Source: Flectonema sp. DT1601
Lineage: Eukaryota
DNA length: 64,000 nt
Assembly: GCA_964019425.1 (NCBI GenBank)
Contig: OZ025804.1
Span: forward strand, 1,116,001-1,180,000
Reading direction: 5' to 3'
This document shows positions 11,201 to 34,789 of the stretch, piece by piece; position 1 is the first letter of the stretch; every line of letters starts with the position of its first letter. The notes beneath the pieces are model-generated. The model was not told the DNA's origin. It did not search any database and saw only the letters and a program-made list of their open reading frames with translations. The position numbers were made by a program, and so were the translations under genes.

Positions 11201-13933
11201 ATGTGATCAGTGGTAACTCCATTTTGTCCGATTGAAGCCCTCAAATCATCAGGCAACAACGAGTGATATAAACAAATAAAAATTATCATCCTGTCAACTA
11301 AAAACTTTTTAGGCAATCAACAGACAGCAAAAACAGATATCATGAGGCTGTCATTTCCTCTCCACTTACGAAAACTGCCTGACTTGAAGTTGTTCGGTGG
11401 AAAGGGCGGACATGGAAGTTGGCATGCTGGATTTATCCTCCAACGCCAGGCTGAACAGCAGAAGAACAAAAATATGATCAGTGGTAACTCCATTTTGTCC
11501 GATTGAAGCCCTCAAATCATCAGGCAACAACGAGTGATATAAACAAAAAAAGATTATCATCCTGTCAACGAAAAACTTTTTAGGCAACGAACAAACAGTA
11601 AAAACAGACAACATGAGGCTGCCATTTCCTCTACGAAAACTGGCGATGGAGTTGACCGAAGGTGGCGGACATGGAACTGGATTTACCCTCCAACGTCAGA
11701 GGCTGTTGAAGACCGACGAGGCTGAACAGCAGAAGAACAAAAATATGATCAGTGGTAACTCCATTTTGTCCGATTGAAGCCCTCAAATCATCAGGCAACA
11801 ACGAGTGATATAAACAAATAAAAATTATCATCCTGTCAACGAAAGACTTTTTAGGCAATCAACAGACAGCAAAAACAGATATCATGAGGCTGCCATTTCC
11901 TCTCCACTTACGAAAACTGCCTGACCGAAGTTGTTCGGGGGAAAGGGCGGACATGGAAGTTGGCATGCTGGACTTTCCCTCCAACGCCAGAGGCTGTTGA
12001 AGACCGACGAGGCTGAACAGCAGAAGAACAAGAATATGATCAGTGGTAACTCCATTTTGTCCGATTGAAGCCCTCAAATCATCAGGCAACAACGAGTGAT
12101 ATAAACAAATAAAAATTATCATCCTGTCAACGAAAGACTTTTTAGGCAACCAACAGACAGCAAAAACAGACATCATGAGGCTGCCATTTCCTCTCCACTT
12201 ACGAAAACTGCCTGACCGAAGTTGTTCGGTGGAAAGGGCGGACATGGAAGTTGGCATGCTGGATTTATCCTCCAAAGCCAGAGGCTGTTGAAGACCGACG
12301 AGGCTGAACAGCAGAAGAACAAAAATGTGATCAGTGGTAACTCCATTTTGTCCGATTGAAGCCCTCAAATCATCAGGCAACAACGAGTGATATAAACAAA
12401 TAAAAATTATCATCCTGTCAACGAAAAACTTTTTAGGCAATCAACAGACAGCAAAAACAGATATCATGAGGCTGCCATTTCCTCTCCACTTACGAAAACT
12501 GCCTGACCGAAGTTGTTCGGTGGAAAGGGCGGACATGGAAGTTGGCATGCTGGATTTATCCTCCAAAGCCAGAGGCTGTTGAAGACCGACGAGGCTGAAC
12601 AGCAGAAGAACAAAAATGTGATCAGTGGTAACTCCATTTTGTCCGATTGAAGCCCTCAAATCATCAGGCAACAACGAGTGATATAAACAAATAAAAATTA
12701 TCATCCTGTCAACGAAAAACTTTTTAGGCAACCAACAGACAGCAAAAACAGACATCATGAGGCTGCCATTTCCTCTCCACTTACGAAAACTGCCTGACCT
12801 GAAGTTGTTCGGTGGAAAGGGCGGACATGGAAGTTGGCATGCTGGATTTACCCTCCAACGCCAGAGGCTGTTGAAGACCGACGAGGCTGAACAGAAGAAG
12901 AACAAGAATATGATCAGTGGTAACTCCATTTTGTCCGATTGAAGCCCTCAAATCATCAGGCAACAACGAGTGATATAAACAAAAAAAGATTATCATCCTG
13001 TCAACGAAAAACTTTTTAGGCAACGAACAGACAGCAAAAACAGACATCATGAGCCTGCCATTTCCTCTACGAAAACTGGCGATGGAGTTGACCGAAGGTG
13101 GCGGACATGGAACTGGATTTACCCTCCAACGCCAGAGGCTGTTGAAGACCGACGAGGCTGAACAGCAGAAGAACAAGAATGTGATCAGTGGTAACTCCAT
13201 TTTGTCCGATTGAAGCCCTCAAATCATCAGGCAACAACGAGTGATATAAACAAATAAAAATTATCATCCTGTCAACGAGGAGTCAACAAAACTGTTTCAC
13301 TAAACCACAAGACACACCTGGAACTTCTGCTGCAGATGGCGCTGAGTTCGCGATTGAGGGCTTCATGATTTCCTGTGATGACGGATATCTTTTGATCAAC
13401 TTCAACAACTAATTCTGAACTCTCAACAATATGAGTCCCGCTGACTAAAGTATTCTTTTCGGATAATACAACAGCAGAGTATCCCTGTTGGTGTTCTCTC
13501 CCATCGCTGTTACTATTTGGAAAGATGTAATTATTGAAATTACTCTCCGGTTCAAAAGATTTTGATGAGACAATTTGATCTAACTCTCCTGGTTCATCAT
13601 CATCAGAGTGGTGATGTTGATGTTGATGTTGGTGTTCATCTATAGAATTATTATCTGCTGCATTAGTACCGTACACGAGTCGAACTTGTTTTTCCAAAGC
13701 TGATATTTCAGAATTGGAAATGTCGGTTGAGGACCAACTGTTTGATTGTTTTTTATTAATTTCATAAATTAACTTTTTTTTAAGATTATTAAAAAGATAA
13801 CATACACTTCACTGTTAAGTATCCCTCCGTCAGGTGAGGTGGAGTTATCCAGATTAGGATTCACAATCAGTTCCTCAGAGTGTCTCCTTCTCAGTAAAGG
13901 TTCTGGACTGATCCCGGCAAACTCGCTCACCAT
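8295..13933 (-). CDS. Six-exon low-complexity (acidic, then Ser/Arg/Pro-rich) hypothetical protein
   Basis: Exons ~13933-13806, 13737-13318, 11115-10682, 10623-10553, 9898-9684 and 9567-8295 splice in frame at GT..AG boundaries (phases checked by hand). No recognisable domain. Confidence 0.6.
9980..10435 (-). pseudogene. Fragment of a cysteine-rich repeat (surface-protein-like) gene inside an intron
   Basis: Repeats such as CCDITCSSHTC...C.G..C.D..CC and CCEAICATVHTC; no ATG or signal peptide; last repeat degenerate. Lies within predicted intron 10552-9899. Confidence 0.5.
11194..13278. repeat. Intronic tandem repeat, ~7 units of ~271-292 bp
   Basis: The marker TAGGCAA recurs at ~11310, 11581, 11852, 12143, 12434, 12725 and 13017. 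Two unit subtypes; starts and ends mid-unit; lies inside intron 13317-11116. Confidence 0.95.
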
Positions 13934-15106: not shown

Positions 15107-16156
15107 TTATTTTTTAATGATCCAAATATCAATCTTGTTGTGAGGCATTTCAACAGAAGCATTCTCATCTACGAAACCTAAATCTATTAAAGCGTTGGGC
15201 AGTTGATCTCTTACTATTGAACCAATATTCACAATCGATCCACTTCGTAGTAAACTCCCGGCAAGCGGTTGTGAGATTAGAGCACAAGCCTCATCTAATG
15301 TGGAGATTTTTAAAGAAAACAAAACATCCGTAAATTCAGGAACCAGGTTCGTTGAAGAAATAAACTTCTCAATAACCGACGACGGGTTGCAATCCCCATA
15401 TTCTGATTCACTCGGAAGCAGATAATCAAACAGAGAATACAACGGAAGAGAAGGATCAAAAACCGCCACCAACATCACTCCCGACTCAGACAACACCCTA
15501 AACGATTCGTTAAGACTGACGAGCATTGATTGCTCCGTTAAAATAGAATCCAATACAAAACAACAAGTGACTAATTGAAACACTGAATCATCATAAGGTA
15601 ACGATGTAGGCATTGCCGTGTCAATTCTTACTTTTGATCCGGAAGACCTTATCAAAGATTTACAATGTTGTTCTACAGAAGATGGCACCACACAAGTAAT
15701 ATCAACATTTGGAACTGATTGGAATAGTGAGATGGACAAGTGAGCAGAGAGAGCCACGTCGAGGATCGAAAACTCGTCTGTTCGATATTTCGGAAGTAGC
15801 CCTTTACATATTTGACTGAGTTCAATAAAAACATCGTCAGGTACTATCCCGCCATCCCATACAGCATATTGATTACCCTCAGATAGATTGCTGCCACGGG
15901 TTGAACTGGATAGTGTTCGTGGCCATTTTACGAGTCCATTTGTCGCTCCAAATCCCAGTTTTGAATTCAACTTCGCTGTAGAACAAAATTTTGATTTCCG
16001 AGTTGAGATTCCATTCTCCCGTCCTTTCTTCTCTCTCAACAAGTCGGCGATGAATTCACGTGGCCTGTCCGGTTTTGAGGAAACGAGAGCTGACACGATT
16101 TTATCGACCAATTGTGGGATCCGCATCCCTTCTAAGTATTCTCTCCCTCCGTTCAT
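15107..16156 (-). CDS. RIIa/Dpy-30-like docking domain fused to a class I SAM-methyltransferase-like domain
   Basis: N-terminal EYLEGMRIPQLVDKIVSALVSSKPDRPREFIADLL; later ILDV, LPYDDSVFQLVTCCFVL and FRVLSESG. The motif I glycines are degenerate, so it may be inactive. Confidence 0.7.
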   Translation of the reverse strand: MNGGREYLEGMRIPQLVDKIVSALVSSKPDRPREFIADLLREKKGRENGISTRKSKFCSTAKLNSKLGFGATNGLVKWPRTLSSSTRGSNLSEGNQYAVWDGGIVPDDVFIELSQICKGLLPKYRTDEFSILDVALSAHLSISLFQSVPNVDITCVVPSSVEQHCKSLIRSSGSKVRIDTAMPTSLPYDDSVFQLVTCCFVLDSILTEQSMLVSLNESFRVLSESGVMLVAVFDPSLPLYSLFDYLLPSESEYGDCNPSSVIEKFISSTNLVPEFTDVLFSLKISTLDEACALISQPLAGSLLRSGSIVNIGSIVRDQLPNALIDLGFVDENASVEMPHNKIDIWIIKK

Positions 16157-16992
16157 TTGTTTTATCAAAAACCTGAAATACAATAAATTTAAGTTTACAG
16201 ATCACCGGTTGTAAATAATTTTTTTTTTTTAAAAAAAAAAAAAAAAAGAAAGAAAGACAACAAAACAAACAATTGAAAATATCCGAACCTAATAACCCAC
16301 CACATATTGTTAATCAAAGAAAATTACGTTTAGAAAAAAGAAAACATAAAAAAGAGAAAACTATATTTTTTGTCTTACTGACCAGAAGACGTTGTCGAAT
16401 CTGGTAATTCGGGGACCACGTACTAACAGGTGAGCGTCCCATGCGAGAAGGGGGGTTGAATGTTTGAATTTGTAAAATACAACTGTTTTTGTATCGTATA
16501 ACATAGCGATAGTTTAACATCTGTTAAGGATACAGAGGGGGGGGATCGAAGGGGAGGGAGATAAACAAAACGTTCCTATCCCAAACATCATTACTTCAAG
16601 ACAATAGTCCCAAAGTTAGCAATGAGTGGGATAACTTCAACGACAGAAGAAAATTAAAAAAAAAAAAAAAAAAAAAAAAAGTTAATTTTTATGTTTTTTT
16701 AGGAGGGAAAAGATTTTTACCATTTATTTTAAAAAAAAATAAAAAAAAATACACAGCCATAGCCTAAAAGGAAAATACAATGTGAGAAGGTGACTGACAA
16801 TATGATTGAACATAAATTATTCATTAACTGAACCACGTGACAGGGGGAAATACAAACACCTCGAGGAAGATTTGAGCGCTATGGTCATTACAGTTGTTCG
16901 TGCCTGTGAGGGTCAGCAAGAATTATTGCCTGGCTTTTTTTTTTTTACGTTTTCACAGCCAACTCATACAACTTGATACTAATATTAAATGG

Positions 16993-17190
16993 AAAGCAAC
17001 TTGAAACTGGCAAAAACGAGAATAGGGTTCGGCCAAACCTGGTTGCAATAAAAGAAATCAACAGTTGGTATCGATAAAAAATCCCATATGTGCTGTCGAA
17101 TATGGGGATTCGGGGGCCACGTACTACAGGTTGAGCGCCCCATGCTCTGTAGCCCGTTACAGCTTAAAATAGTATTCCTTCACACTTTAA
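16993..17190. repeat. Dispersed short interspersed element copy carrying a structured motif
   Basis: Near-collinear with 19471-19667 (aaagcaacttgaaactggc...ttacagcttaaa). Core also at 16411-16445 and 27422-27475. Confidence 0.8.
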
Positions 17191-18314
17191 AGGTAAATAA
17201 ATATTAAAGGAAAATTTAAAAAAAAGAAAACTGGGGAGGGGGGGAAAAAAATAAAATAAAATAACTAAAAATAACTAAAAATAAAATACCCTCCCTTGGG
17301 TATTTTTTTAAGATACCTGCTGAAGCTGAAATAGCCGCCACTTATATTTCTACCTCCTTCTTTGCTACTTGTTGATTATTTGTTATTTTTTTTTTTTTTT
17401 TTTTTTAAATTTCTAAGAATAAGTTCTCAGATTATACAATCAACTGTTAAAAAATAAAATATAAAAAAAAAAACCATAGTTCAGGACATGACGTTTTTTT
17501 CCATTGGAAAGAGAAAAAATAATAAATAATCAGGGAAGAATTATTCCTAATGCCCCCCTCGCAGCTGTTTCCAAGAAATCAGAAAATACTATATTATGGC
17601 ACAGCTATTGGGAAACCATCGATCTTTAAGCACAATTAACTGGCCTGGTTAATTACTTCTATGAGGGAAAGAATTCATGCTTCTCGTGGTCTTCCCATTG
17701 AAAAAGACTAACTCGAAAATTCACAAAAAAAAAAAAAAAAAAAGTTATCGGCTCTCATATTTATCACACTTTTTCGAGTGAATTTTTTTTCTTCTTTTTT
17801 TTTTCTCGCAACAATAGATTTAGTTATCCAGTCGTGACAATTAGTTCCTTTTTTTTTTTCTTTTTTTTTTTTACATTTAACACAAGTACTTACTTAAGAG
17901 CTTAAACAGCACACGTAAACCTCCTTTAGTTTCTCAGTTTAGTCGGTTCACGGGATTCGTGTACAAACCCAAACATCAGCGCACATGATGGGATTCGTTT
18001 CTATTTTCTGTGTAGTTTAAAGTCAACCGGTCCAAAAAAATAAAATTTTTCATCTTAAGGGAGTTTAACACCAGAATTTGAAGTTCCTTTTTTATTTTAT
18101 TTTATATCCCACCGACAAAATCGGAGAAGAAACTATTCAGATTAAGAGCCTGTTTATTTACTATGTTCAAATGTTATTATTTTCCGTGTGCCGCCAGTAA
18201 TACTGTCTGGCGATCAACAAAATATATATAAGGCTTTATCTTGAATGGTTTTTTTTTTTTTTGTTTTTTTTCCCCCTCCTCTCCTCCCAAAACCATTACA
18301 TTTTTTTATCTTCA

Positions 18315-18360
<46 letters not shown>

Positions 18361-19470
18361 ATAGTTTAGTACCATAAGTAGAACAAATCAAGTGAGGAAA
18401 AATGTTCTCAGAGAAATTAAGGCTGAAAGAGAAAAAACCTAAACCTAATTATTATTGATTTATCCATATTACGTAATTGCTTCTTTGGAAAGGAAACCAC
18501 AAGTAATGTGGAGAAAAAAAGAATTCCTCGTTGATTCAGAGTCGTGTGTGAAATTGATTTTTTTTATTCCTCACAAGGGATAATTCCTTTTTTACAATAT
18601 AAAAAAAAAAAAATAATAATAAATAAAAAATATAAAAAATCCAAGGAAAAGAGAAACTGAGGGGGTGAACAAATCGTACAGCCGCCTGAAGAGAATAACA
18701 AAAAGTTGACAAATCAGCTAGCTAAGCGACTTGTAGAATTCTATACCGATTAGAATTTTTCTCAAAAGGCAGTTTTTTCGTGTGAAAGAACGAGAAAGAA
18801 AGCGAAAGAGAAAAGAGAGAGAGAGAAAGAGACACCCAAACTACTCGTTTTTTTTTTTTTTTTTTCCAGGACCGTTACATATAAAGTTAATTGTAGTGGC
18901 GGGGGAGGTACTTTGATGCTGCATTTTTTAATCTCGAAGGAACAATAATTTCTCCCGACAATCGACCGTTAGTATATGACTGCAAATAAATAAATAATGC
19001 GCACGTGAACATAGTTGAGCGCCCACTTGCCTATGTTACCGTAACAGTTTCTTCTTATAACTCGGGGGTAATTTGATCGGGTGAAAAAAAGATTTTCCGC
19101 TCTACAAAAGAAACATATATGTGGGGAAAAGAAGGGAGGAAAAAAAAAAAAAAAGGGAAGAAACGGTGCCGTCAACTATCTGAGTAATTTGATAGTATTT
19201 TTAAAACTCAACAAAGGGAACAACAATTTCTCCCGACGATCTTGACTGTCAGTAAGTGATCAGCCAATTATCCTGCGGGGGGTTGACTGTTTGATTTCGT
19301 ACGTAAAATACAACTGTTTTATCTGATTAACATTACGATAAAGGATAGGGCGATGATAAACTTTAGCCTTTTGTAACTATTTACGTTTCGAGAGTAATCT
19401 AATGTACCTCGTTACTTCTATTCCCTCTCATCAGTATGCAGGGGGTGTAACTTGATACGATGATTAAATA

Positions 19471-19667
19471 TAAAGCAACTTGAAACTGGCTAAAACGAAT
19501 ATAGGGTTCGGTCAAACCTGATTGCAATGAAAAGAGAACAACAGTTGGTATCGATAAAACATCACATGTGTGAATATGGGGATTCGGGGGGTCACGTACT
19601 ACAGGTTGAGCACCCCATGTTCTGTAGCCCCGTTACAGCTTAAAAATTAGTATTTCTTTACACATTT
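19471..19667. repeat. Second copy of the dispersed short element
   Basis: Matches 16993-17190; the neighbouring 19278-19340 resembles 16451-16510. Confidence 0.8.
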
Positions 19668-20406
19668 CGAAATCAAATAAAAATTTGAGAAAAAACTTAT
19701 TTCTAATTTTTGGCCACCCGCAGAGTTATAACAGTGCACCCATCCCTCAAAAAAAAATATTAAAAAAAATAAAAAATAAAAAATTGCAACGTAATAACGA
19801 AAACAATAATCCAACATACATAATCAAAAGATTGAAATATAGTTTTTTTTGTTTTTTTGTTTTCACAAGAAGGGAAGAAGGGTATCAAGCTTCACATCAT
19901 CCTACATCCCTTTCAGGACTTCCAACAAGGTGCGGATGATGACAACACTGCCAAGCAAATCGCAGCTGGGGGCACCAATACTAACAAAACGTTTGATCAG
20001 TAAAAGAGTATTCTCGCAAATTGTTCGTTTTTTTTTTTTTTTTTTTTAAAATCACTAAGTTACTACTCACGAAGGTGTTATATTATAGGGGAGAGGAAAG
20101 GGGGGCTACACAATTATAAAAAACACAAAAAGAGAAGGGAAAAAAAAAGAGGAGGAAAAAAAAAGGATTAAGGTATTTATAAAAATAAAATAACAAAAAA
20201 AATAGCGTCGCATCATAAAAAAAAAAAAAAAAAAAAAAAGGGACAGATATTAAATCATGGAGTTTTTATTTTGTTGTATCTCATAAATTATGATTCGATA
20301 ATTCGACATCCAGATTGAGTAGAATAAGGTGCACACGACTCGTGATTTTTTTTTTTTTTTTAAATCTTTTTTTCCCTTGAGTCCTCCGACATTCAACAAC
20401 AAGAGA

Positions 20407-22561
20407 TTATTCACTTTGACTACCAACTGTCGATTCTAGTGCTGCTTCACTGATTTGTAACTCTTCAGCACCCAAAGCTTCTAACTGTTTACGTAGAGCT
20501 GCAGTCTTACCTGTCGGTGCGTAAGGAACAGAAGGAGGAGTGTAACTTGGAGAATCTCGTTGGTCGTTTTCAACAACTGGAGACACGTCATCCATTAGAA
20601 GTCGAGGTCCCATTTCACTGTCTTCTTCGATTTCAGTTTGACGTTGGCGTTGCAAAAAATAAGTTACCGGAATAATTAATATTGTGATCAACATTAAACT
20701 CCAACCAATTGCCTGAAATCCAGGTCCGTAAGGATCCTGTTCCGATTGCGAATACGGTTTTAGGCAATCAGTTACAAAAAGTGTTCCTAATAAAACAGTA
20801 CAAACACACGGAGCAACCCAAACCAAACAATGTCTTATAAATCTAGGTAATTCTCGACCTCTTCCGTTGTTTATGTGATTTAAACCAGTAGTAGCCAATT
20901 GAACATTCGTTGCGAGGACTTCCCACGTGACATCCCATGCGAACATATAACACTCAAGTGAACACACAATAAGCATCGTGTACGTAGTGACGTAGTGGTC
21001 AACAATATCTAAAAGAGAGAAACCACCACTTGTACAGAATACCAACCCAACAAGAAACAGCGACAGTACAATAATTGCGAGGAGTCCTCTTCGTTCGAGG
21101 GATCTGTTTGTTTTTGTTTTTGTTTTTGCTTTTTAAATGCAGGGAAGAAACCACATGTTAGTACAGTTCTGTTACTTTTTTTTTCAACGTGATAAAAGAT
21201 AAAACAACATACGATCCAAATTTCCCTTTTCCGTCAGAAATATAGTAATCCTCAAAATATGTTACCAAAGTCTCAACTCCCGCGAAAGCAGTATCAAGAC
21301 CCAAACAATAACACATCGCAAACAAAACAAATGAAAAGAATCCCGACGACGATCCAAAAGTTGCCAAACCCTCAGCCAATGCAACGAATGCCATTCCAGG
21401 TCCGTTAGACGTCGCTAACGATTCGACTAAGTCGGAATTACAATTTTCGACATCCATTTCCTTACATCGTTCGTTTGCAACGTAACCAATAATTGAAAAC
21501 ACCGTTAACCCAGCAACAAGACTGAATGTGGTATTTATAACAATTACAATGACATTGATGCGATATATATCTTCCTTAGATCTCATGTAACTAGCAAGTG
21601 TGATTGATGTCCCAGGTAAAAACAACAACGTGAACAAAGTCTGTGAACACGCCTCTGCCCACATAACCGGATCTGCAAATTTCACTACGTCAAAACGACC
21701 AATGAAATAAGCGATACCAGTACCTGCACCTTCAAGAAAAAGACTTCTTATACACAATAAACAAATTAAAATAACTGGAAATCCCACTGTGACATAAGTA
21801 ACCTTAGCACTAATACTTATTCCTTTATAAACTGAAGCAGCAATAATGCCGTATGACACCAAGAGGCCCGATACCAAGAACCATTGAATACTACCTAAAG
21901 ATTCCGCTGGGCCTGTATGGTCTTTTCCGAGAACACTAATTTCCCAGTAGTACTGTGCTGCGGTTGTGTTTGCAGGAACATATGGTCCCAATGCTTCTCT
22001 AGACCATGGAAGAGGTGTTACAAAACTATTAACAAGATAAACGGAACAATACGACAGCAACACGGAGTAGTAAGTTTGAACAATAAAGAGAGCAAACACA
22101 CAAGAGTAACCAACTCCTATCCATCGTGGGTTTATTTCACGATATACATAGACCGTTGATTTTCTCATTGTCTGTCCATAAGCGAGTTCCAACAAGTAGA
22201 CGGGATGAGCTACAAATAACAAACATATCGCATATGCGAGTATGAATGAAAGTCCTCCAAACTTACCAACTAAATATGGAAATCTCCATAAATTCCCGAG
22301 TCCAACGGCGTATCCAACGAGTACTATGATGGACTCATTGGTTTCGATTCCCTCTCCTCGTTGAAATTTCAACCCTGCTTCTATGAATTTTTCATTTTCT
22401 TCTTTTAGTAAGATGTATTCTGATTCTTCTTCCGCAGGAAGTCCAGAAGATTCTCTTTTTGTTACCAATTCTCTTAATCTATTGTCTTTCTCTCGCGACC
22501 ACCCTGCCATTCCTTCTCTGTTTACTTCATTTTCGCGAATACGATTAGGAGCGGCAGGCAT
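20407..22561 (-). CDS. SLC6/NSS sodium:neurotransmitter symporter family transporter, two exons
   Basis: Signature GYAVGLGNLWRFPYL..K.GG..F, LELAYGQ, W.EACSQ, GPGMAFV, LGLDTAF. Intron 21212-21104 (GTATGT..CAG) joins the two ORFs in frame. Confidence 0.93.
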
Positions 22562-22852
22562 CTCCTTCTTTTAGGGTTTACTTGGTCCCCGTGTCTGATA
22601 AAAAAATGAATTTAAAAAAAAGAACTACAAACGGGAAAACTAAATTTATGGTTCCAACAAAACGCTCTTCTTACAGCTCACAGTTTTTGATGAAGTCCTG
22701 GTTGGGTTTAAAAAAATAAATAAATAAATTTACTTTCATTTCTTTTTTTTTTTTTTTTTTTTTTTTTTTCCAAAACAAGAAGAATTAAACGAAAATAATT
22801 ATTACAAATTAAATACAGCCAAAGATGAACTACTGGATAACGAAAGAGAATA

Positions 22853-22891
<39 letters not shown>

Positions 22892-23049
22892 ATCTAAAAC
22901 TTTTTAAGAAAATACTACTCCCAAGAAATACCAAAACCGTTATAATCTCGTGAGGTGGAAAAAAAAGGAGATGTGGATTTTTCATTTTAGAAAAGGAAAC
23001 TCGGGTAATAAGTTAGTAACAGATATCAAAAACGTTCTCTCTGTCCTTA

Positions 23050-23880
23050 TCATTGCAGCCTGAGATCTATATTAAGCTGTGGTAATTGTTCATTACAGCG
23101 CTGCATTTGCCCAAATGCCGATTCGATTATTTTACTCAGCCGTTCATTCTCAGACCGAAGGTCCACAATTTCAGCTGCAGATCCGAAACTGATGTGTCGT
23201 CTGCTGTTGTCTGCAGCAGCCTGTTCCTTAATAAAGGAAAATAAAGACTTGTCACTTCTGTTTAGAGAGAGTACGTGAGTCGTGAGGTTGGCAAGCTGCT
23301 GTTTTAGACGGTCATTGTCAGCCGCAAGCTCAGCACTTTGCAAAGAGCATTCTTTTGTTATTGTCGACAGTTTTTCAAAATCCTTCACGAATTCCATAAT
23401 CAAAGAAGATGGATAAACACTTTTTTTTGTTGCTTCAGACACCTGTCTCGCAGTCAAGCCTTCAATAAGTTCACTTTGTTGAAGCCGACTGCGATCAGAA
23501 CTTCTCAGCCTGTCGGAGAGATTTTTATTCTCCGATTGTAAATTAGAGATGTCTTCCTCGTGATTTTCACTTTCCTGATATTTTTGTTGTTGCAGTTTAT
23601 TAATATCCCCCTCTAAGTGTTTGATCAAATCAGAGAGTCTCTTAACTTTTTGTTCTAAACCGTCAACCTTTGTTGTAGCCTTCCTCCCCATCAATACCGC
23701 GTCTTCTAATTTGACGTGTGTTTCTTCACTGTCTGCTCTCTCTTTATTTAAACTCATCTCTGTTTCAGTTAGCTTGTTCGTTAAAATTTCATTATCTCTG
23801 ATCAGTCTCTGACATTCCAAATTGAGACGACAGTTCTCACGTTCGGAGAGTTGAAGATCAGCAAGACCCTCCTCATCCAT
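23050..23880 (-). CDS. Coiled-coil hypothetical protein, 276 aa
   Basis: Intact heptad-rich ORF, co-oriented with its neighbours. Confidence 0.7.
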   Translation of the reverse strand: MDEEGLADLQLSERENCRLNLECQRLIRDNEILTNKLTETEMSLNKERADSEETHVKLEDAVLMGRKATTKVDGLEQKVKRLSDLIKHLEGDINKLQQQKYQESENHEEDISNLQSENKNLSDRLRSSDRSRLQQSELIEGLTARQVSEATKKSVYPSSLIMEFVKDFEKLSTITKECSLQSAELAADNDRLKQQLANLTTHVLSLNRSDKSLFSFIKEQAAADNSRRHISFGSAAEIVDLRSENERLSKIIESAFGQMQRCNEQLPQLNIDLRLQ

Positions 23881-24092
23881 ACTTTCTGTCTGATTACTTG
23901 AAAAAAAAAATTTTAAATAATAAAATACTTAAATTTTTAAATATAAGATAACAAACACGTGTAAAATATTTTTTTGTGTCCGTCACAAAATCCTAATAAA
24001 GGGAATAGCTTAGTTAGCGCTGTCACAATTATCTTTCTACCAAACAATGGGTTTGTAGGTAGTTAACTTCACTCCTTGAGTAGAATCACCCT

Positions 24093-24466
24093 CTACGGTA
24101 ATGCTTTCGGATCGGGTGCATTCCACCAGTAACAACTGTCATCGTTTATACAACTCTGTCTGTTTGTTGTTTGATTTTCTTCTAGATTGATACACTCTAG
24201 GTGGAGGAAGCTGAGTAAACATACTTCTTTCCCCTGTGCATAAGACAAGATGATATATCAACTTCATCTTCACTGTGAGTTGCCTTGCAGTATCCTCCGT
24301 AATTTCTAATGTCATGATGAACCTTCGCGAATACCTTAAAACTCATAGCAGGGGGTTTAGCACTTGCAGTGCTCATAGTTGATGTGTAATCTGATGACAA
24401 TAATAATGCAGTTTGCTAACTCACCTTACCGAGACAAAGAATGTTTTGTTGTATAAATAACAACAT
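24093..24466 (-). CDS. Possible small spliced Cys-containing protein
   Basis: ORF 24197-24400 has a GTATGT donor after HRGK; splicing to aaacag| gives ...KQSCINDDSCYWWNAPDPKALP*. The 5' exon is ambiguous. Confidence 0.35.
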
Positions 24467-24839
24467 ACCATGATCGAAAATGAAATTGCTTTTATTCAAG
24501 AAAGCTGTGAAGCTAAAATGCCCTTCCTCTCTCGAGTGATATACCCGTCTCTACAATAGAGCTACTCAATGGGGGTGTTGTACTTCACATTAACTTTCGC
24601 ACGCCGGCTTCGTTTTTTTCTCTTCACACAATTAGTTCCTTTGTACAAAACCGAAGAGCAACGGTTTCCATGTAATCGGATATCTAAATCATAAGTCTTG
24701 GGATTGTAAAAGAAGACAAAATAGTTGAAAAAGAATTCCCACATTGAACCACACCTCTCACATCAGTAGCAACTAAGAAAAACATCTCAAAAACAATCGG
24801 CAAACTTCACTTCTTTACTTACTCACTCACACTTTTATT

Positions 24840-25142
24840 TTGTTTGTGCGCAACCGGATTCACGAAGAAACCCCAAGATTCTTCAAAAGAAGCCAACAAG
24901 ACAACTCCCCAACCAGAACCACTAGCATCAGTGGCGATTCTTATCACCTTGCGTTCTGGATCGATCACCCATGTCGCCCATTTGTTTTTGAAGAGCGCAG
25001 AGAACTGCACTTCAATGTACTTCGCGATCGGTTCAACAGATGTCAATTCAGTCCACGGACGTCCCAGGGCTGCAGTACGTGACATCCAAGCAAGAATGGG
25101 GCGTAGAATGAGACGATCGGCAGGGTGGAGGTGTTCATGATT
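24840..25142 (-). mobile_element. DIRS/YR-retrotransposon-type RNase H relic
   Basis: IATDASGSGWGVV matches the TDAS..GWG start of DIRS-type RNase H; truncated on both sides. Confidence 0.6.
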
Positions 25143-25350
25143 TTTCACTTTGCTACACGAAAATTCACAATTTTTTCACAATTTTTCACACTTTTTCACA
25201 CTTTTTCATACTTTTTCACACTTTTTCACACTTTTTCACACTTTTTCACACTTTTTCACACTTTTTCACAATTTTTCACTTAATTTTTTGCTGCTTTCTG
25301 GTAGTGAAATCCCGTGAAAATGTGTGAAAATGTGTGAATTCTAGTGAAAA
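25142..25350. repeat. Decamer (TTTTTCACAC)n tract followed by inverted GTGAAAA copies
   Basis: About 11 tandem 10-mers at 25170-25280, then gtgaaaatgtgtgaaaatgtgtgaa at ~25314-25338. Confidence 0.85.
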
Positions 25351-27617
25351 AAAGTGAGTGATATCCAGATGGTACCGTTGGTGCTGGTGTGCTGTGCGAT
25401 GTCAAACCTGTTCAGTTTGCCATACATGTCTCTTTGACAACTAAATGGGCATCGCTTGTGCCCAGTGACATCACCCTTCCTGACCATCGCTTGTGGTGAG
25501 GTTCCGGACTTTGGACCGGCGCATCGCGTGTGCGGTGGGTTTAATCACTGAGGGGCTCATTCTCGTTCAGACTGTTCTGTTCTGTTCTGTTCTGTGGTGT
25601 CTTTCCATTACTCCTCCCATCTCTGCCAGGAGACAGCCTGACAACCCATATTGATATTGCTTGAGAGACAATGAGAGGTAATTCATTGGGGTAGAAATGG
25701 CTGTGTGGCCTGTACTCCTTAATATTCCCTTAATCACACCACAGGTACCCTCAGAGAGACCACAATTCATGTGTGTGGGAATTACGACGTCTGCGAGATG
25801 CCCAGGAAACCGAAGATACAGATCGATTTCCCGCACACATAAACAGCAGACCACCGATAGCATGAGCGTTATCCCTTCCTTGACCTCCAGGTCCTTCGCC
25901 TGAATCCCCTTCTTGCGAATTGTTGTAAGGAAGCTGCGGAACCGTAGAAAATTCTCCTCTATACTCTTGAGGGACTCACGTTCGCAAGGCAGGGAACACT
26001 TTTCGTCAGTACTGTGTGTTTTCATCAGTATAAACGAAACAACCGTCAGGGGTGGACTCCTCAGACAATGTGAATGCTGGTTCTGTAAGCCAGATATCGC
26101 GAACAACCCGACCATGATCATTCAGCAAATATGAGATGTCAATTGTGGCTGCCTCTGACATGTCCCGTGCAACCTCTGCCCAAAACTCGAGAAGTTCACT
26201 GAGCGCAGAGGTAATCGTGCAGGTTGACAGAGGTGGCGGTGTCGGATCAGTGATTAAGATTCCCAGCTGCTGGAAGTGGTGCAGCGCACGTCGTAGTGTG
26301 TCACAGAATGATTGAGCTTGAAACGATGTTGCCCCAGGTTATGAGTCAGCAACCTGCACTAAGCAATGTCTCAGAGTGCCGTACCGAGTGTCCGAACGTG
26401 ACAGAACGAATCAGCAGTACGGATACGTCACGCACGACGTCAGCGGCGGCATTCCTGACGGAACGGTCAGTGCTGTAGCATCACGGCTCCGATCGCTATG
26501 TCGATCGACCTTTAATTGTTTTCATCTTGAACGGGACATCACTCTCGCAATGATTTGATTTTCTACAATCATATCGGGTTATTTTCTCTCTTTTTCTTTT
26601 ACTTCTCCCTTCCCGTTTTCCTTTTCCTTTTCCCTTTATTACTCTCTATCTGGTCTGTTATGTCATAAATCTCATTTAATTTTATCAACCTTTTAACTTT
26701 TCACTGTTTCCCATCTACATTTTATTTTCAAATAGTTCCGGTCTGTCTTTGCGGGAAGAAACAGAAGCCTCATCTTCAATTCCATGGAAGTAGCTAGGCC
26801 TGGCCAGCTTACAGGACGAAGACTTCTAAAACCTAAGATGAACCAATTGAGTTGAAACAAACAAATAACAGAGACGCAACACATACCGGAACATCATCAG
26901 GCGCATCTCTTGTCTTAGCCCTAGCATGCTACGTTGGAACATTGTCACCAGCCCGGTGGACCAAGTTGTAATTATTGCCCCTGGTTTACTCATCACTCTT
27001 CCGTGTGACGGCGGTTATTCCCTAATAACCTGTTGTATGCTATACCTAAGTCTTTTACTTTTTTCTTCTTCACACGCTGTCGGTTTCCACCTTCGATGCA
27101 GTCAATCTTGTTCCGCCTTGGTTGTTTTTGGAAGAGCTAAGCTAAGTGGCAAGGTTTCACTAACAGATCGACTTTTTGTCAGCATCTCAGGCTTCTTTTT
27201 GCCGAGGACGTGCGGCTTTCTTTGAGGTCTCACAGTGACACTTTTAAAAGAAATTATCTATTCCGGTGGGTATAAAAAAAAGGGGGGGACTTGGATAAAT
27301 AAATCAAGGTTAACACGCAACAAATTAGACATGAATCATTATAACTGGATTCTGTCCACACAAAATCGCATGCTTTAAATAAACTACCAGAGAAAGAAAT
27401 GCTGTCAAGTCAAATTGACCCGGGGACCACGCACTACAGGTTGAGCATCCCATGCCCTGCAGGTCGTTACAGCTTGAAAACATTAATGCATTAATGGGTA
27501 ACCAATAAAAATTATCTGGGTGGGCAGTTACAGGGGTGAGAAAAAAAGAAAAGATAAATAACATGACAAGAATACGCTGGTTCGTAGCACACTACCAGTA
27601 AAGCCCATCCCATAAAC

Positions 27618-29776
27618 TCAGTTATGGTTGGTTTGACTCAAAAGCAGGAAAGGTTCACAAGTCAACTGATGGATTTGCAAACCTCGAATTCCCGCAAACC
27701 ATGTGCCTGCTTTCGTCGTTCGCATGCCACATCCACAACAAAAGTATATTCCAACGCAATTCAAACAAACATTCCAATCACATGTTAAGCTCTCACCATT
27801 ACAAGGGAGACGACATTCAAATATTTGTCCAAAGAAAAAATTTGAATCACATAAATCACAAAAAACCGGTTTGTTAATGAGAACCATTTCAAGATCGTGA
27901 CCTTGTGGGCAAGTAGTGGTTACACCATTTTGTTCTAACTCGGTATGTACTTTCATTGGTGAGAGCACCTTGCAGGATTTAGAATCTGTTTCATTGACGA
28001 TACTTTTCGATAAGAATCTACTCGTTACGTCCTTTTCGTTTAAAACAAATAAAGGTAATATGATTTCTAAACCTCCTTCACGCAATTTATCAAAGAGTAC
28101 CCCGGCTTCGTCAGGTAAGTTTTCACTCTCCACATCAGTAAAGCCAGAACAGGTAACCAAATTAAACAGGCCATTGAGAACGACCTCAGTATACTCTATA
28201 CACCAATCATTGATTACTGACCAATCGTATGGCCCTAGTATTGGGAAAAAGTGCTCAGATGGAACATTTGCATGGTGCCCGAGTATGATAAACCCCCTGA
28301 CAAGTAAAAAAGTAGACCGTGCGTCGGGAGCGACAAAGTAAGCGGAGTCTTTTTGCTCATAAGGGTCCATACTTAGGAAGAAAAAACTAACACCCAATAC
28401 ATTTGATAAGGCTTGTATGGCTGCATGGTCTGCCCACACACCATCAAAACCCATTCCAAGTGCATATTCGTCGTAATTACCGAGTACAAAGTTTTTATAT
28501 TTATCACTGTTATCTACTAACTCAGCACTGGTAAATTCACGTAGCGTCGCTGCATCAAAGAAGTAAAAAATTTGTTTCGATACTGCTTCAAACAATTACC
28601 AAAACGGTTCACGTCTTCAGGGTAAAGACCAACTTCTTCCATATACCATATCGTGTGGTCAATTGTAAAGTAATCCACTTTTCCTTCTTGAACAATTGGT
28701 TCTTCTGGAATCAACACTACGGCTTTAGGCGGGTAAACAATAAACTGTCTTTCTTTTGGAAAATGGTAAGAGTGAGGGTTGTTCAATTTACCAAAAACAA
28801 CATGAACTAAAGAAAGTAATCTCTTATATGTGGAATCGTAGGCTTTATAAAACTCATCGCAGAATTCACGAAAAGCAAATGCTACGTCTTGTTTCTTAAA
28901 ACCTCTTTTCCACATTCTATAAAGTATAAATTCAAATTCAACAAAAAGATCAGGTAAATTATTACAAATCATTGCAGCTCTAAACATAGCACCTTTAACC
29001 ACTCCTTTCGGTATAGACACGGAGTTGAATTTCCAGGTGAGATTTGGACTGTTAGCTTTTGGCTAAGGCCCTCCCTGAAGAGCAAGAACAAAAAAACTAC
29101 TCACACCTGAAGAAAACATACACAAAGAACACACTGTAAGCTGTGTGTGTATTTTGTGTTTGTCACAACAGGAGAGAAAAGAAAGAATGTCAAGGTTGGT
29201 CACCTTGCCTATCAACGCACAACATTGGTGGTCTCTACTAGACCCTGAGTGATCCCACTGGATCTCTCATCGTTCATAGTACCCTGTGTGAAGTTATAAA
29301 ATCAAAGGTAAACTATGAACTACAAATGACTTAGCCTGTTATTATAATGCCACAGGCAGGCCCTGCATTCAGCAACTATCCAGCAGTGCTTGGATGTCCT
29401 GATCTTCTTCTAAAAAAAAGAAAGAAAAACAAAACTGTAGCTGGGATCACTCAGGATCAACAGACTACCAATGCTACCTGTTGTACTTGCTCACTATGGG
29501 GGGTGATGCCAAACACCCAGAAGTACTAAACTGCTTTCCTTCTTGCTGCCCAGGAGTTTCTGACCAGAACTAATAGAAAATAAAAAGTAGATGGGAAACA
29601 ATAAAAAGTAAAATGGATATAACTGAAGTTAAACAAGACAAATGAAGTAACAGACCAGAACAGAAAGAGGATTGTGGCATAGTTGAATTACTATGAACAT
29701 ATTGCAAAGGGCGAAAAGACCAATCCTTTCGGCTTATAGATAACCTGATAAACTTTCTCTTTTCCTTTGTTTCAAT
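27618..29776 (-). mobile_element. 5'-truncated Penelope-like RT ORF (thumb region) + OTU protease + Zn fingers; frameshifted and interrupted by R1
   Basis: 29776-29676 joined to 29021-28517 reads ISRKDWSFRPLQYVHSNSTMP|VSIPKGVVKGAMFRAAMICNN...F..E...L..RGF (PLE thumb pattern). Then D..R.GNC/LFEAVSKQ...WADHAAIQALSNVL...EHF (OTU), CPQGH..CDLC..C..CDWNVCLNC and a C2HC finger. No GIY-YIG seen. Confidence 0.7.
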
Positions 29777-32119
29777 GAGTTGAATTTCCAGGTGAGATTT
29801 GGACTGTTAGCTTTTGGCTAAGGCCCTCCCTGAAGAGCAAGAACAAAAAAACTACTCACACCTGAAGAAAACATACACAAAGAACACACTGTAAGCTGTG
29901 TGTATATTTTGTGTTTGTCACAACAGGAGAGAAAAGAAAGAATGTCAAGGTTGGTCACCTTGCCTATCAACGCACAACATTGGTGGTCTCTACTAGACCC
30001 TGAGTGATCCCACTGGATCTCTCATCGTTCATAGTACCCTGTGTGAAGTTATAAAATCAAAGGTAAACTATGAACTACAAATGACTTAGCCTGTTATTAT
30101 AATGCCACAGGCAGGCCCTGCATTCAGCAACTATCCAGCAGTGCTTGGATGTCCTGATCTTCTTCTAAAAAAAAGAAAGAAAAACAAAACTGTAGCTGGG
30201 ATCACTCAGGATCAACAGACTACCTATGCTACCTGTTGTACTTGCTCACTATGGGGGGTGATGCCAAACACCCAGAAGTACTAAACTGCTTTCCTTCTTG
30301 CTGCCCAGGAGTTTCTGACCAGAACTAATAGAAAATAAAAAGTAGATGGGAAACAATAAAAAGTAAAATGGATATAACTGAAGTTAAACAAGACAAATGA
30401 AGTAACAGACCAGAACAGAAAGAGAATTGTAATAGAAGATTACAAATAAAAAAATGCAAGTATCAACACATGATCAAGATACACCAGCAGCTAACAAACA
30501 ACATAAAATTGAAGATCAGTTGCCAGAGTATTTCAACCATGGTAGAATACTCGCCCCTCTGGCAGGGATTATCCCAGACTTGTCCTTTAATTTAGTTGGA
30601 CACCATGGCTTACAACCCTTCCAGAGGGAAGCACCATTATGACTTCTATTTTTTTCTTCAAGAAAATCATAAGGTGGTAACAAAGAAAAATGCTAAGAGG
30701 AACCCCTTATTAACACCTAAGACATCTAAACTGCAGCCCAGCTTATGCCCAATGCACTAACAGGTCATTCCCTCACACTCAGATCAAAAAATCAAAGTTC
30801 AGAGTGCATCTTAGCATGAATGAGAGAATTTCCTCCCGCTTTTTTTGAACAAAAGGGATAGGAGAAGGGATAGAAAACGAACATAACAATAAGATTCTAA
30901 GTGAGAAACACTTAGCAGAAACACTTAGCAGCTTTTAAGGAGCTGAAAAGCAAAAAAAATATCTAAGTGAGAAACACTTAGTAGAAACAATTTGTAGCTA
31001 ATTAAGCTGAAAATAAAAAAATAAAAAAAATTTCTAAGTGAGAAATACTTAGCAACTTTTAGAACAAATATTCCAGTAAATAACCTGTAATGATTAAACC
31101 ATTACAAGTTTGATGCCAAAACTGACAAAGACTGAGTTGAATTTCCAGGTGAGATTTGGACTGTTAGCTTTTGGCTAAGGCCCTCCCTGAAGAGCAAGAA
31201 CAAAAGAACTACTCACACCTGAAGAAAACATACACAAAGAACACACTGTAAGCTGTGCGTGTATTTTGTGTTTGTCACAACAGGAGAGAAAAGAAAGAAT
31301 GTCAAGGTTGATCACCTTGCCTATCAACGCACAACATTGGTGGTCTCTACTAGACCCTGAGTGATCCCACTGGATCTCTCATCGTTCATAGTACCTATGT
31401 GAAGTTATAAAATCAAAGGTAAACTATGAACTACAAATGACTTAGCCTGTTATTATAATGCCACAGGCAGGCCCTGCATTCAGCAACTATCCAGCAGTGC
31501 TTGGATGTCCTGATCTTCTTCTAAAAAAAAGAAAGAAAAACAAAACTGTAGCTGGGATCACTCAGGATCAACAGACTACCAATGCTACCTGTTGTACTTG
31601 CTCACTATGGGGGGTGATGCCAAACACCCAGAAGTACTAAACTGCTTTCCTTCTTGCTGCCCAGGAGTTTCTGACCAGAACTAATAGAAAATAAAAAGTA
31701 GATGGGAAACAATAAAAAGTAAAATGGATATAACTGAAGTTAAACAAGACAAATGAAGTAACAGACCAGAACAGAAAGAGAATTGTAATAGAAGATTACA
31801 AATAAAAAAATGCAAGTATCAACACATGATCAAGATACACCAGCAGCTAACAAACAACATAAAATTGAAGATCAGTTGCCAGAGTATTTCAACCATGGTA
31901 GAATACTCGCCCCTCTGGCAGGGATTATCCCAGACTTGTCCTTTAATTTAGTTGGACACCATGGCTTACAACCCTTCCAGAGGGAAGCACCATTATGACT
32001 TCTATTTTTTTCTTCAAGAAAATCATAAGGTGGTAACAAAGAAAAATGCTAAGAGGAACCCCTTATTAACACCTAAGACATCTAAACTGCAGCCCAGCTT
32101 ATGCCCAATGCACTAACAG

Positions 32120-32566
32120 AAATACTACCGAAATGCTTGTCACAATGGCTCTTGCCGTGCCTTCCGGGAAAGAAGTTAACACTTTTGACATTCGGGTGTG
32201 CCAGAAGCTCGCTTATGACTGTGGCATTCCGAAAGTGTGTGCCACTGTCACACCAGATGTGGATTGGTTTCATGTTCTTCCTGATTAAAGGCATCTCCCA
32301 CAGCTTGCGAAGACATAAATAAGTCACAGCCGCATCTTGATTTGTGTGTGGCAAGAGAAGGTCAATGTACTGTTGTCGAGTTTCATCGTGCAACTTGAAA
32401 TGCATAACTATACCCAGACAACTGTACTTCCCCTGCTGGTAGTAGTGTGATGATGACTCTTGTGGTACCTGTGGCAGGGTACCCTTCTCCTTATAGTCGA
32501 GTGTTATAATTAAGCTATCCCCAGGGTCAGCAGTGTTTTCTGAATAGACTGCATTCTGTCTCTTAA
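32120..32566 (-). mobile_element. Sola-like DDE transposase fragment (catalytic core)
   Basis: LIITLDYKEK ... IHIWCDSGTHFRN ... VNFFPGRHGKSHCDKHFG, matching the D..D..HGK..CD pattern of Sola2/3-type transposases. Confidence 0.7.
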
Positions 32567-34789
32567 ACTGAGTTGAATTTCCAGGTGAGATTTGGACTGT
32601 TAGCTTTTGGCTAAGGCCCTCCCTGAAGAGCAAGAACAAAAAAACTACTCACACCTGAAGAAAACATACACAAAGAACACACTGTAAGCTGTGTGTGTAT
32701 TTTGTGTTTGTCACAACAGGAGAGAAAAGAAAGAATGTCAAGGTTGGTCACCTTGCCTATCAACGCACAACATTGGTGGTCTCTACTAGACCCTGAGTGA
32801 TCCCACTGGATCTCTCATCGTTCATAGTACCCTATGTGAAGTTATAAAATCAAAGGTAAACTATGAACTACAAATGACTTAGCCTGTTATTATAATGCCA
32901 CAGGCAGGCCCTGCATTCAGCAACTATCCAGCAGTGCTTGGATGTCCTGATCTTCTTCTAAAGAAAAGAAAGAAAAACAAAACTGTAGCTGGGATCACTC
33001 AGGATCAACAGACTACCAATGCTACCTGTTGTACTTGCTCACTATGGGGGGTGATGCCAAACACCCAGAAGTACTTAACTACTTTCCTTCTTGCTGCCCA
33101 GGAGTTTCTGACCAGAACTAATAGAAAATAAAAAGTAGATGGGAAACAATAAAAAGTAAAATGGATATAACTGAAGTTAAACAAGACAAATGAAGTAACA
33201 GACCAGAACAGAAAGAGAATTGTAATAGAAGATTACAAATAAAAAAATGCAAGTATCAACACATGATCAGGATACACCAGCAGCTAACAAACAACATAAA
33301 ATTGAAGATCAGTTGCCAGAGTATTTCAACCATGGTAGAATACTCGCCCCTCTGGCAGGGATTATCCCAGACTTGTCCTTTAATTTAGTTGGACACCATG
33401 GCTTACAACCCTTCCAGAGGGAAGCACCATTATGACTTCTATTTTTTTTCTTCAAGAAAATCATAAGGTGGGAACAAAGAAAAATGCTAAGAGGAACCCC
33501 CTATTAACACCTAAGACATCTAAACTGCAGCCCAGCCTATGCCCAATGCACTAACAGGTCATTCCCTCACACTCAGATCAAAAAATCAAAGTTCAGAGTG
33601 CATCTTAGCGTGAATGAGAGAATTTCCTCCCGCTTATTTTGAACAAAAGGGATAGGAGAAGGGATAGAAAACGAACATAAAAATAAAATTCTAAGTGAGA
33701 AACACTTAGCAGAAACACTTAGCAGCTTTTAAGGAGCTGAAAAGCAAAAAAAAAATCTAAGTGAGAAACACTTAGTAGAAACAATTTGTAGCTAATTAAG
33801 CTGAAAATAAAAAAATAAAAAATTTCTAAGTGAAAAATACTTAGCAACTTTTAGAACAAATATTTCAGTAAATAACCTGTAATGATTAAACCATTACAAG
33901 TTTGATGCCAAAACTGACAAGGACTGAGTTGAATTTCCAGGTGAGATTTGGACTGTTAGCTTTTGGCTAAGGCCCTCCCTGAAGAGCAAGAACAAAAAAA
34001 CTACTCACACCTGAAGAAAACATACACAAAGAACACACTGTAAGCTGTGTGTGTATTTTGTGTTTGTCACAACAGGAGAGAAAAGAAAGAATGTCAAGGT
34101 TGGTCACCTTGCCTATCAACGCACAACATTGGTGGTCTCTACTAGACCCTGAGTGATCCCACTGGATCTCTCATCGTTCATAGTACCCTATGTGAAGTTA
34201 TAAAATCAAAGGTAAACTATGAACTACAAATGACTTAGCCTGTTATTATAATGCCACAGGCAGGCCCTGCATTCAGCAACTATCCAGCAGTGCTTGGATG
34301 TCCTGATCTTCTTCTAAAGAAAAGAAAGAAAAACAAAACTGTAGCTGGGATCACTCAGGATCAACAGACTACCAATGCTACCTGTTGTACTTGCTCACTA
34401 TGGGGGGTGATGCCAAACACCCAGAAGTACTTAACTACTTTCCTTCTTGCTGCCCAGGAGTTTCTGACCAGAACTAATAGAAAATAAAAAGTAGATGGGA
34501 AACAATAAAAAGTAAAATGGATATAACTGAAGTTAAACAAGACAAATGAAGTAACAGACCAGAACAGAAAGAGAATTGTAATAGAAGATTACAAATAAAA
34601 AAATGCAAGTATCAACACATGATCAGGATACACCAGCAGCTAACAAACAACATAAAATTGAAGATCAGTTGCCAGAGTATTTCAACCATGGTAGAATACT
34701 CGCCCCTCTGGCAGGGATTATCCCAGACTTGTCCTTTAATTTAGTTGGACACCATGGACACTTCTACATGATAATGAACCTCAACAAGT

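Follow-up and report, generated by a model that had tools for sequence, protein, structure and literature searches.

A candidate self-cleaving RNA resembling a rearranged twister-sister ribozyme in a Penelope-like element of Flectonema sp. DT1601

Introduction

Twister-sister ribozymes are known so far from bacterial and phage DNA and in one topology, and their human look-alikes are slow and poorly conserved. Here we describe a motif of about 55 nucleotides (nt) from a eukaryotic retroelement, a Penelope-like element (PLE) of Flectonema sp. DT1601, which, judging from sequence and pairing, likely represents a self-cleaving RNA of a kind not described in Penelope-type elements. The DNA analysed, called the window below, comprises 64,000 nt of contig OZ025804.1 (assembly GCA_964019425.1, positions 1,116,001 to 1,180,000), and all coordinates refer to it.

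In the four-way twister-sister ribozyme, internal loop L1 is formed by a short strand (G5 C6 A7 A8 G9) opposite a long strand (G59 C60 U61 C62 A63 U64), the cut falls between C62 and A63, and the loop of stem-loop SL4 (U30 G31 C32 A33 A34 G35) docks on L1; the A8U variant keeps part of its activity, and G5A nearly abolishes cleavage (PMC5660989). The twister-sister fold contains no pseudoknot (PMC6154101). A minimal P1-L1-P2 core recurs in the lantern ribozymes of human LINE-1 and OR4K15, one of them in a retroelement, which are simple two-stem hairpins or circular permutations with poor natural conservation and no pseudoknot (PMC11620745). The LINE-1 ribozyme has the long strand GCUCAA, with A at the U64 position, and an activity of 0.8 with A39U and 0.47 with U38A (PMC11620745). 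Non-circular permutation is documented for another ribozyme class, the hammerheads, where natural SGC and CSG types have reordered blocks and stems that become pseudoknots; no such twister forms were found in that study, which, as far as its accessible part goes, reports no search for twister-sister (PMC10085705).

PLEs carry hammerheads near the element 3' end and on the sense strand (PMC8557442, PMC11167929). For one PLE, insertion in vitro did not require hammerhead cleavage, which itself depended on the protein of the element (PMC11167929). Canonical hammerheads were mostly not found in the Naiad/Chlamys clade, whose marks are CxC, DKx and a finger insertion, according to the accessible sections of Craig et al. 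(PMC8557442).

Five copies of the motif on the sense strand of the element

We read the motif, with a probability of roughly 55%, as a non-circularly rearranged twister-sister-like ribozyme of the minus strand, with self-cleavage predicted at GCUC/AA. A preliminary description of this DNA had listed four copies of a covarying pseudoknot, at 16411, 17112, 19586 and 27422. All four were found at these places, their pseudoknot arms vary together across copies as had been noted, and the copy at 16411 is indeed truncated, with the motif ending at 16444. The count itself was one short, since a fifth, diverged copy at 18997-19050 had been overlooked; it was recognised when 16100-20500 was read on the minus strand. 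This strand, the sense strand of the PLE, carries all five copies, which are designated c1 to c5 as follows.

27423..27475, minus strand: c4, full length, in the 3' untranslated region (UTR) of the PLE
27472-27465, 27462-27456, 27455-27451 and 27450-27447, minus strand: SL4-like block, P1a, short strand and P2 strand X of c4
27446-27441, 27440-27434, 27433-27428 and 27427-27423, minus strand: long strand, P1b, linker and P2 partner of c4
17113..17165, minus strand: c2, full length, P2 GGC/GCC as in the Rfam twister-sister consensus
19588..19641, minus strand: c3, full length, A at the position equivalent to G5, predicted inactive
18997..19050, minus strand: c5, new and diverged, core GCAAG/GCUCAA, P1 with 7/7 Watson-Crick pairs in other letters, one P2 mismatch
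16411..16444, minus strand: c1, 5'-truncated, without P1a and the SL4-like block
27442..27443, minus strand: predicted cleavage site of c4, a C/A step placed by analogy with C62-A63 of twister-sister
17133/17132 (c2), 19608/19607 (c3), 19017/19016 (c5) and 16432/16431 (c1), minus strand: predicted equivalents of this cut
16970..17214, minus strand: repeat unit around c2, 83% identical to 19449-19694
19449..19694, minus strand: repeat unit around c3

The earlier placement of one copy just 3' of a PLE-like open reading frame (ORF) holds for the minus strand, where c4 starts about 140 nt past the stop codon (27618-27620). The flanks of c4 had been said to differ from those of the other copies, and its likeness to c2 is in fact confined to 59 nt (84.7% identity) between unrelated flanks. 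Copies c2 and c3 are not independent, as they share a 250-nt repeat with 83% identity; this unit probably represents the 3' terminus of a second family of elements.

The core 13-mer of the motif has three exact occurrences in the window, and eight with up to two mismatches against 0.70 expected, a number reached in none of 100 shuffles. A pattern including c5, designed after the fact, gave four matches in the window and was not matched in 100 shuffles. With a covariance model built from the three other copies, c1 scored 16.9 bits (E 0.024) and c5 15.3 bits (E 0.063), both E values being rough; the two ranked directly after the training set, and the following match reached 7.7 bits. A sequence-only profile search of the window did not recover c5.

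Anatomy and covariation

Read on the minus strand, the full copies consist of CUGUWACG, 2-3 nt, P1a (7 nt), RCAWG, X (4-5 nt), GCUCAA, P1b (7 nt), YRCGUG and X', in this order. P1 pairs at 6-7 of its 7 positions in all four full copies. By comparison, none of the 104 loci matching the same loop letters by chance in prokaryote genomes reached six P1 pairs, and two of 210 did so in viral contigs, among the matches listed. In a model-fitted alignment of all five copies, 84% of the cells pair and 8 of the 14 pairs show two-sided changes (0/500 shuffles), six in P1, resting mostly on c5, and two in the pseudoknot helix X/X'. Between c5 and c2, the loop letters are kept at 21 of 23 positions and the stem letters at 6 of 22 (Fisher p 1e-5). 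The conserved RNA motif is real, and the earlier proposal of a structured, covarying motif in the PLE 3' region and candidate self-cleaving RNA is supported; no Rfam family matches the motif (see below). A further possible helix, ACG/CGU, is invariant in 5/5 and 4/5 cells. When the copies were folded as homodimers, with a method that cannot represent kissing pairs, they shared no single arrangement.

Likeness to twister-sister

For comparison, natural twister-sisters were fetched by pattern from viral contigs (126 loci). Of 20 loci submitted to Rfam, 18 contained twister-sisters, 30 in total, with scores of 74-91 bits. The Rfam consensus (RF02681) reads GCAAG-GCC ... GGC-GCUCAU with a P2 of 3 base pairs (bp). 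In the copies, X is preceded by GCAUG or GCAAG and followed by GCUCAA, and both strands keep the twister-sister register relative to P1. Counted over G5 C6 A7 A8 G9 and G59 C60 U61 C62 A63, the agreement is 10/10 in c5, 9/10 in c2 and c4, which depart by U for A8, and 8/10 in c3. As in twister-sister, a P2 of 3-4 bp adjoins the long strand, X ending in GGC in c2 and c5 and X' beginning with GCC in c2. Of 73 natural twister-sister-type matches, 66 have GGGC in front of GCUCA, as do c2 and c5; the last two letters of GGGC were fixed by the pattern. Both L1 strands would be met in register by chance with a probability of 1.6e-6, which rises to 1.6e-4 if a factor of 100 is assumed to allow for many possible cores. 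The LINE-1 lantern ribozyme has a long strand identical to that of the motif, and both A for U64 and U for A8 are tolerated in RNAs that have been assayed, namely the LINE-1 lantern ribozyme, also as its A39U variant, and twister-sister A8U, which keeps part of its activity. In contrast, the A at the G5 position of c3 is the change that nearly abolishes twister-sister cleavage, and c3 is therefore predicted to be inactive.

The topology sets the motif apart from its closest relatives. In twister-sister, P1, L1 and P2 are nested and lead to a three- or four-way junction, whereas the P2 partner of the motif lies 3' of P1 and forms a pseudoknot. The lantern ribozymes have a 5+6 nt loop closed by continuous stems, whereas the short strand of the motif leads into X and not into the P2 partner; natural covariation and extra conserved blocks also belong to the motif and not to the lanterns. 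Differences from the family in topology, U64, G35 and P4 mean that the motif is not a member of RF02681, for which no match was found at the gathering cut-off (34 bits) over the whole window or at E ≤10 around the copies. Rfam gave no gathering-level match in the window except for a ribosomal RNA (rRNA) fragment, and four chance-level matches around the copies at E ≤10. Rfam does not see the motif because its second P2 strand lies at the 3' end instead and it lacks P3-P5.

The Rfam search that had been proposed thus matched the motif to no family. The reported lack of fit to the hammerhead, hepatitis delta virus (HDV), twister and pistol ribozymes agrees with this result, which also covers hatchet, and a hammerhead descriptor was empty at the copies; nor does the motif contain the CUGAnGA/GAAA core of the PLE hammerheads. 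We also take its strand order to be unlike those of HDV and pistol. The motif had been drawn on the plus strand without a known relative. On the minus strand, its invariant loop letters coincide with the catalytic loop of twister-sister, so that a known core in rearranged form describes the motif better than an unrelated class does.

Several other designs were considered and dropped: a circularly permuted lantern with RCGUG as the short strand (no P1 possible in an 8-nt loop), a symmetric X-X dimer (X is not self-complementary), and SECIS, H/ACA RNA and splice-signal readings (no Rfam match, with a branch-point-like string solely in the decayed c1).

A model for the rearranged core

In the proposed fold, P1 and the two loop strands would rebuild L1 of twister-sister, and X/X' would correspond to P2 with its second strand relocated to the 3' end, a non-circular permutation. 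In the simplest model, the first loop would supply G5-C6-A7 and then cross the P2 groove as in an H-type pseudoknot; the invariant G ahead of X' may stand in for G9, and the 5' UGUAA block may take the part of the L1-docking loop of SL4. A single RNA could fold into an H-type pseudoknot, or two copies could fold together by swapping partners, the loop of one RNA pairing with the tail of the other. Given a 3' linker that is short relative to a P1 of 7 bp, either P1 would fray or two RNAs would swap, and the invariant ACG/CGU pairs would fit the two-RNA form. Cleavage would depend on divalent metal ions and yield a 2',3'-cyclic phosphate and a 5'-OH. It may serve to cut read-through or tandem element transcripts, as the hammerheads of other PLE clades may do. 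Dimer cleavage has reportedly been described for PLE hammerheads.

A broader account, to which we give slightly less than an even chance, is that the motif represents a natural non-circular twister-sister permutation, the first of its kind, which is under selection in a eukaryote, replaces the missing hammerhead in a diplonemid branch of the Naiad/Chlamys elements, and builds its active site from a split short strand or from two RNAs. If true, the twister-sister core can be rewired as the hammerhead can, and the motif, a natural RNA of 55 nt, would allow a disputed mechanism to be tested. It would also give a possible answer to the apparent lack of ribozymes in the Naiad/Chlamys clade, which may seem to be without them because descriptor searches sought hammerheads only. 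The reading makes a base-exact prediction, namely a cut at the C/A step and an inactive c3.

Evidence against the model and alternative explanations

A number of observations weigh against a twister-sister-like ribozyme of the minus strand. The U64 position, which pairs with G5 in twister-sister, is A in 4/4 full copies versus U in 73/73 natural matches, and the motif has no P3, P4, P5 or junction. The SL4-like block upstream of P1, C-UGUAAC-G (UGYAA in three of the four full copies, with 1-2 closing pairs at most), differs from the G-UGCAAG-Y-C of twister-sister in that the highly conserved G35 is C and the P4 stem is nearly absent; c5 has U at the A33 position, and c3 has A at the G5 position. 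Because the P2 strand after GCAAG has moved to the 3' end, the short strand cannot run on into P2, and since the two are not joined as they are in the twister-sister and lantern ribozymes of the papers cited, the active site would be split over two strands or molecules, a point that rests on argument. A looser lantern descriptor gave four matches in the window against a mean of 0.375 per shuffled window (200 shuffles), so lantern-like cores arise fairly easily by chance in bulk DNA. There are five copies, all within one window, and c4 alone is tied to the PLE ORF. The two-sided changes are mostly those of c5, a shift of c5 by one base lowers their number, and the model guided the alignment itself. 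The loop conservation of c5 relative to c2 is inflated because c5 was found through its loop letters. Folding energies are ordinary (z-scores -1.05 to +1.26). Wobble pairs point both ways as to the strand: c4 has two G-U pairs that favour minus, whereas the terminal P1 pair of c2 and c3 and the change in c3 are G-U on plus and favour that strand. The truncation points (16444, and 27425 and 27480 in contigs of run X1) fall off the predicted cut. Finally, searches of metagenomes, genomes and viral contigs, in collections with little eukaryotic DNA, found no homologs.

Some of this evidence would suit a non-catalytic 3' UTR pseudoknot bound by the PLE reverse transcriptase (RT) to pick or position its template, with the likeness to twister-sister due to a shared loop fold or to chance. 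The location near the 3' end of the element, the conserved flanking blocks CUGUWACG and RCGUG, which have no clear twister-sister role, the in vitro insertion of one tested PLE without need of hammerhead cleavage (PMC11167929) and the chance frequency of lantern-like cores all fit such a role. However, this explanation, which we consider unlikely, does not account for 11 loop letters that match a catalytic core in register, nor for the P2 match. Action on the plus strand, or a regulatory role for the host, in which a motif derived from dead PLE ends would work between the genes of a polycistronic transcript, is distinctly less probable: four copies are clustered between two host genes (16202-20406), all neighbouring host genes are also on the minus strand and the G-U pairs of c2 and c3 point to plus, but the two c4 pairs point to minus, no known core was seen on plus, and c3 and c1 appear decayed rather than maintained.

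We give still less credence to an unrelated class of self-cleaving RNA with its cut at another bond. The topology unlike twister-sister, the extra invariant blocks and the near-invariant ACG/CGU helix, which is incompatible with P2 in one molecule, would then be explained, but the L1 match would be a coincidence. That the copies are plain repeats with accidental pairing is very improbable, although they are few and their folding energy is not unusual, since the likeness of c2 and c4 is confined to the motif and both helices show two-sided changes; in addition, control matches from prokaryotes and viruses rarely reach the P1 pairing.

Searches for relatives and earlier descriptions

An exact pattern of the motif gave five matches in JGI metagenomes, all of them bacterial or phage sequences in which inspection by eye showed no such pairings, 104 matches in prokaryote genomes, none with at least six P1 pairs, and two chance matches in viral contigs; two further scans of viral contigs gave at least 210 distinct matches, and among those listed none had both helices. 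RF02681 was found in none of three genomes, the PLE protein gave no loci in viral contigs, and a protein atlas returned no usable match. Exact short strings identified no motif copy in the supplement of Craig 2021, a weak result given line breaks and divergence. The literature searched, thin on subscription journals, contained neither a permuted twister-sister nor a non-hammerhead ribozyme in PLEs, and the motif is not mentioned in the accessible parts of the Diplonema genome paper (with seven supplements) and of a 2026 retrozyme preprint. Among the viral sequences, gut-type phage contigs (L356, L359, L364, L372, L418 and others) carry two or three twister-sisters a few hundred bases apart.

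The Penelope-like element

The window is eukaryotic, with a gene run entirely on the minus strand. The element associated with c4 is broken and comprises the following parts.

27618..29020, minus strand: 3' part of the broken PLE ORF, with RT thumb, a frameshift near 28535-28595, an OTU-like protease and a Cys-rich finger
29669..29776, minus strand: upstream RT piece (residues 149-184 of protein P0003), split off by a 654-nt repeat
27274..27617, minus strand: putative 3' UTR, with several distinct contigs of run X1 on 27274-27480

These pieces are 88-97% identical to the intact protein P0003, through which the PLE-type RT marks were recognised (GIPMG and YIDD motifs, thumb). A search with its relative P0004 identified 27 proteins; the best named matches are from Diplonema papillatum (about 40% identity), and distant matches (24% identity) carry a GIY-YIG domain (PF01541). 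The CxC and DKx marks are present in the relatives P0004 (with the finger insertion), P0005, P0014, P0015 and P0017, and the window copy and P0003 do not include that 5' part. Going by these relatives, the host is likely a diplonemid or related to diplonemids. Like Naiad/Chlamys elements such as Chlamys-1_cBra (PMC8557442, available sections), the element has a C-terminal cysteine-protease domain and a Cys-rich motif and no C-terminal GIY-YIG. However, this domain is OTU-like here and Josephin-like there, and the closest named relatives are diplonemid. The finding points to undescribed deubiquitinase-bearing PLEs in diplonemids.

The PLE group as a whole (P0003, P0004, P0005-P0017), from diplonemids and other assemblies, carries C-terminal deubiquitinase domains of OTU or PF00443 UCH type. 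The Diplonema genome paper lists PLE-type ORFs with such domains among the host genes, and its accessible text and seven supplements do not mention Penelope.

In run X1, 12 contigs matched 27240-27640, covering 27274-27480 and in several cases differing from one another, and a contig related to the c2 repeat spans 17055-17205 with six differences. As distinct and differing contigs match them, the PLE 3' unit and the c2 repeat unit are likely dispersed repeats. No X1 contig fell on the PLE ORF or the host genes, which proves nothing.

Other features of the copies and the window

A hairpin and a UYGACARC string lie shortly 3' of c1, c2 and c4 (16360-16410, 17060-17112 and 27400-27422, minus strand) and may be a further part of the motif. 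Two places share a 44-nt stretch (84% alike), 16450-16489 just upstream of the truncated c1 and 19277-19320 beside a hammerhead-like remnant, which suggests nested pieces of related element ends. The remnant itself lies between c3 and c5 on the minus strand (19386-19434 and about 19298-19306) and has a CUGAUGA and GAAA core, a stem II of at least 3 bp, no stem I, and a possible stem III with a long insert and a GUA triplet at its end.

The 654-nt repeat, which splits the PLE RT at P0003 residues 184 and 183, occurs in about 12 near-identical copies inside larger tandem units at 29022-52017, with an inverted piece (78% identical) at 26649-26743. The tandem units also carry pieces of transposase-like ORFs, for example at 32085-32648. 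The minus strand at 24822-26340 holds a presumably DIRS/TATE-like remnant, in which an RNase H-like motif (Pfam RT_RNaseH, E 0.18) is accompanied by a possible piece of a tyrosine recombinase. Another tandem array, with a unit of about 291 nt and open frames on the minus strand, is located at 11194-13278. On the plus strand, 54354-63295 holds four tandem units of about 2.7-2.8 kb, each with one ORF of 415-452 amino acids showing a weak match to HNH_2 (E about 0.001); this array stands just after a large-subunit rRNA fragment (52293-52523).

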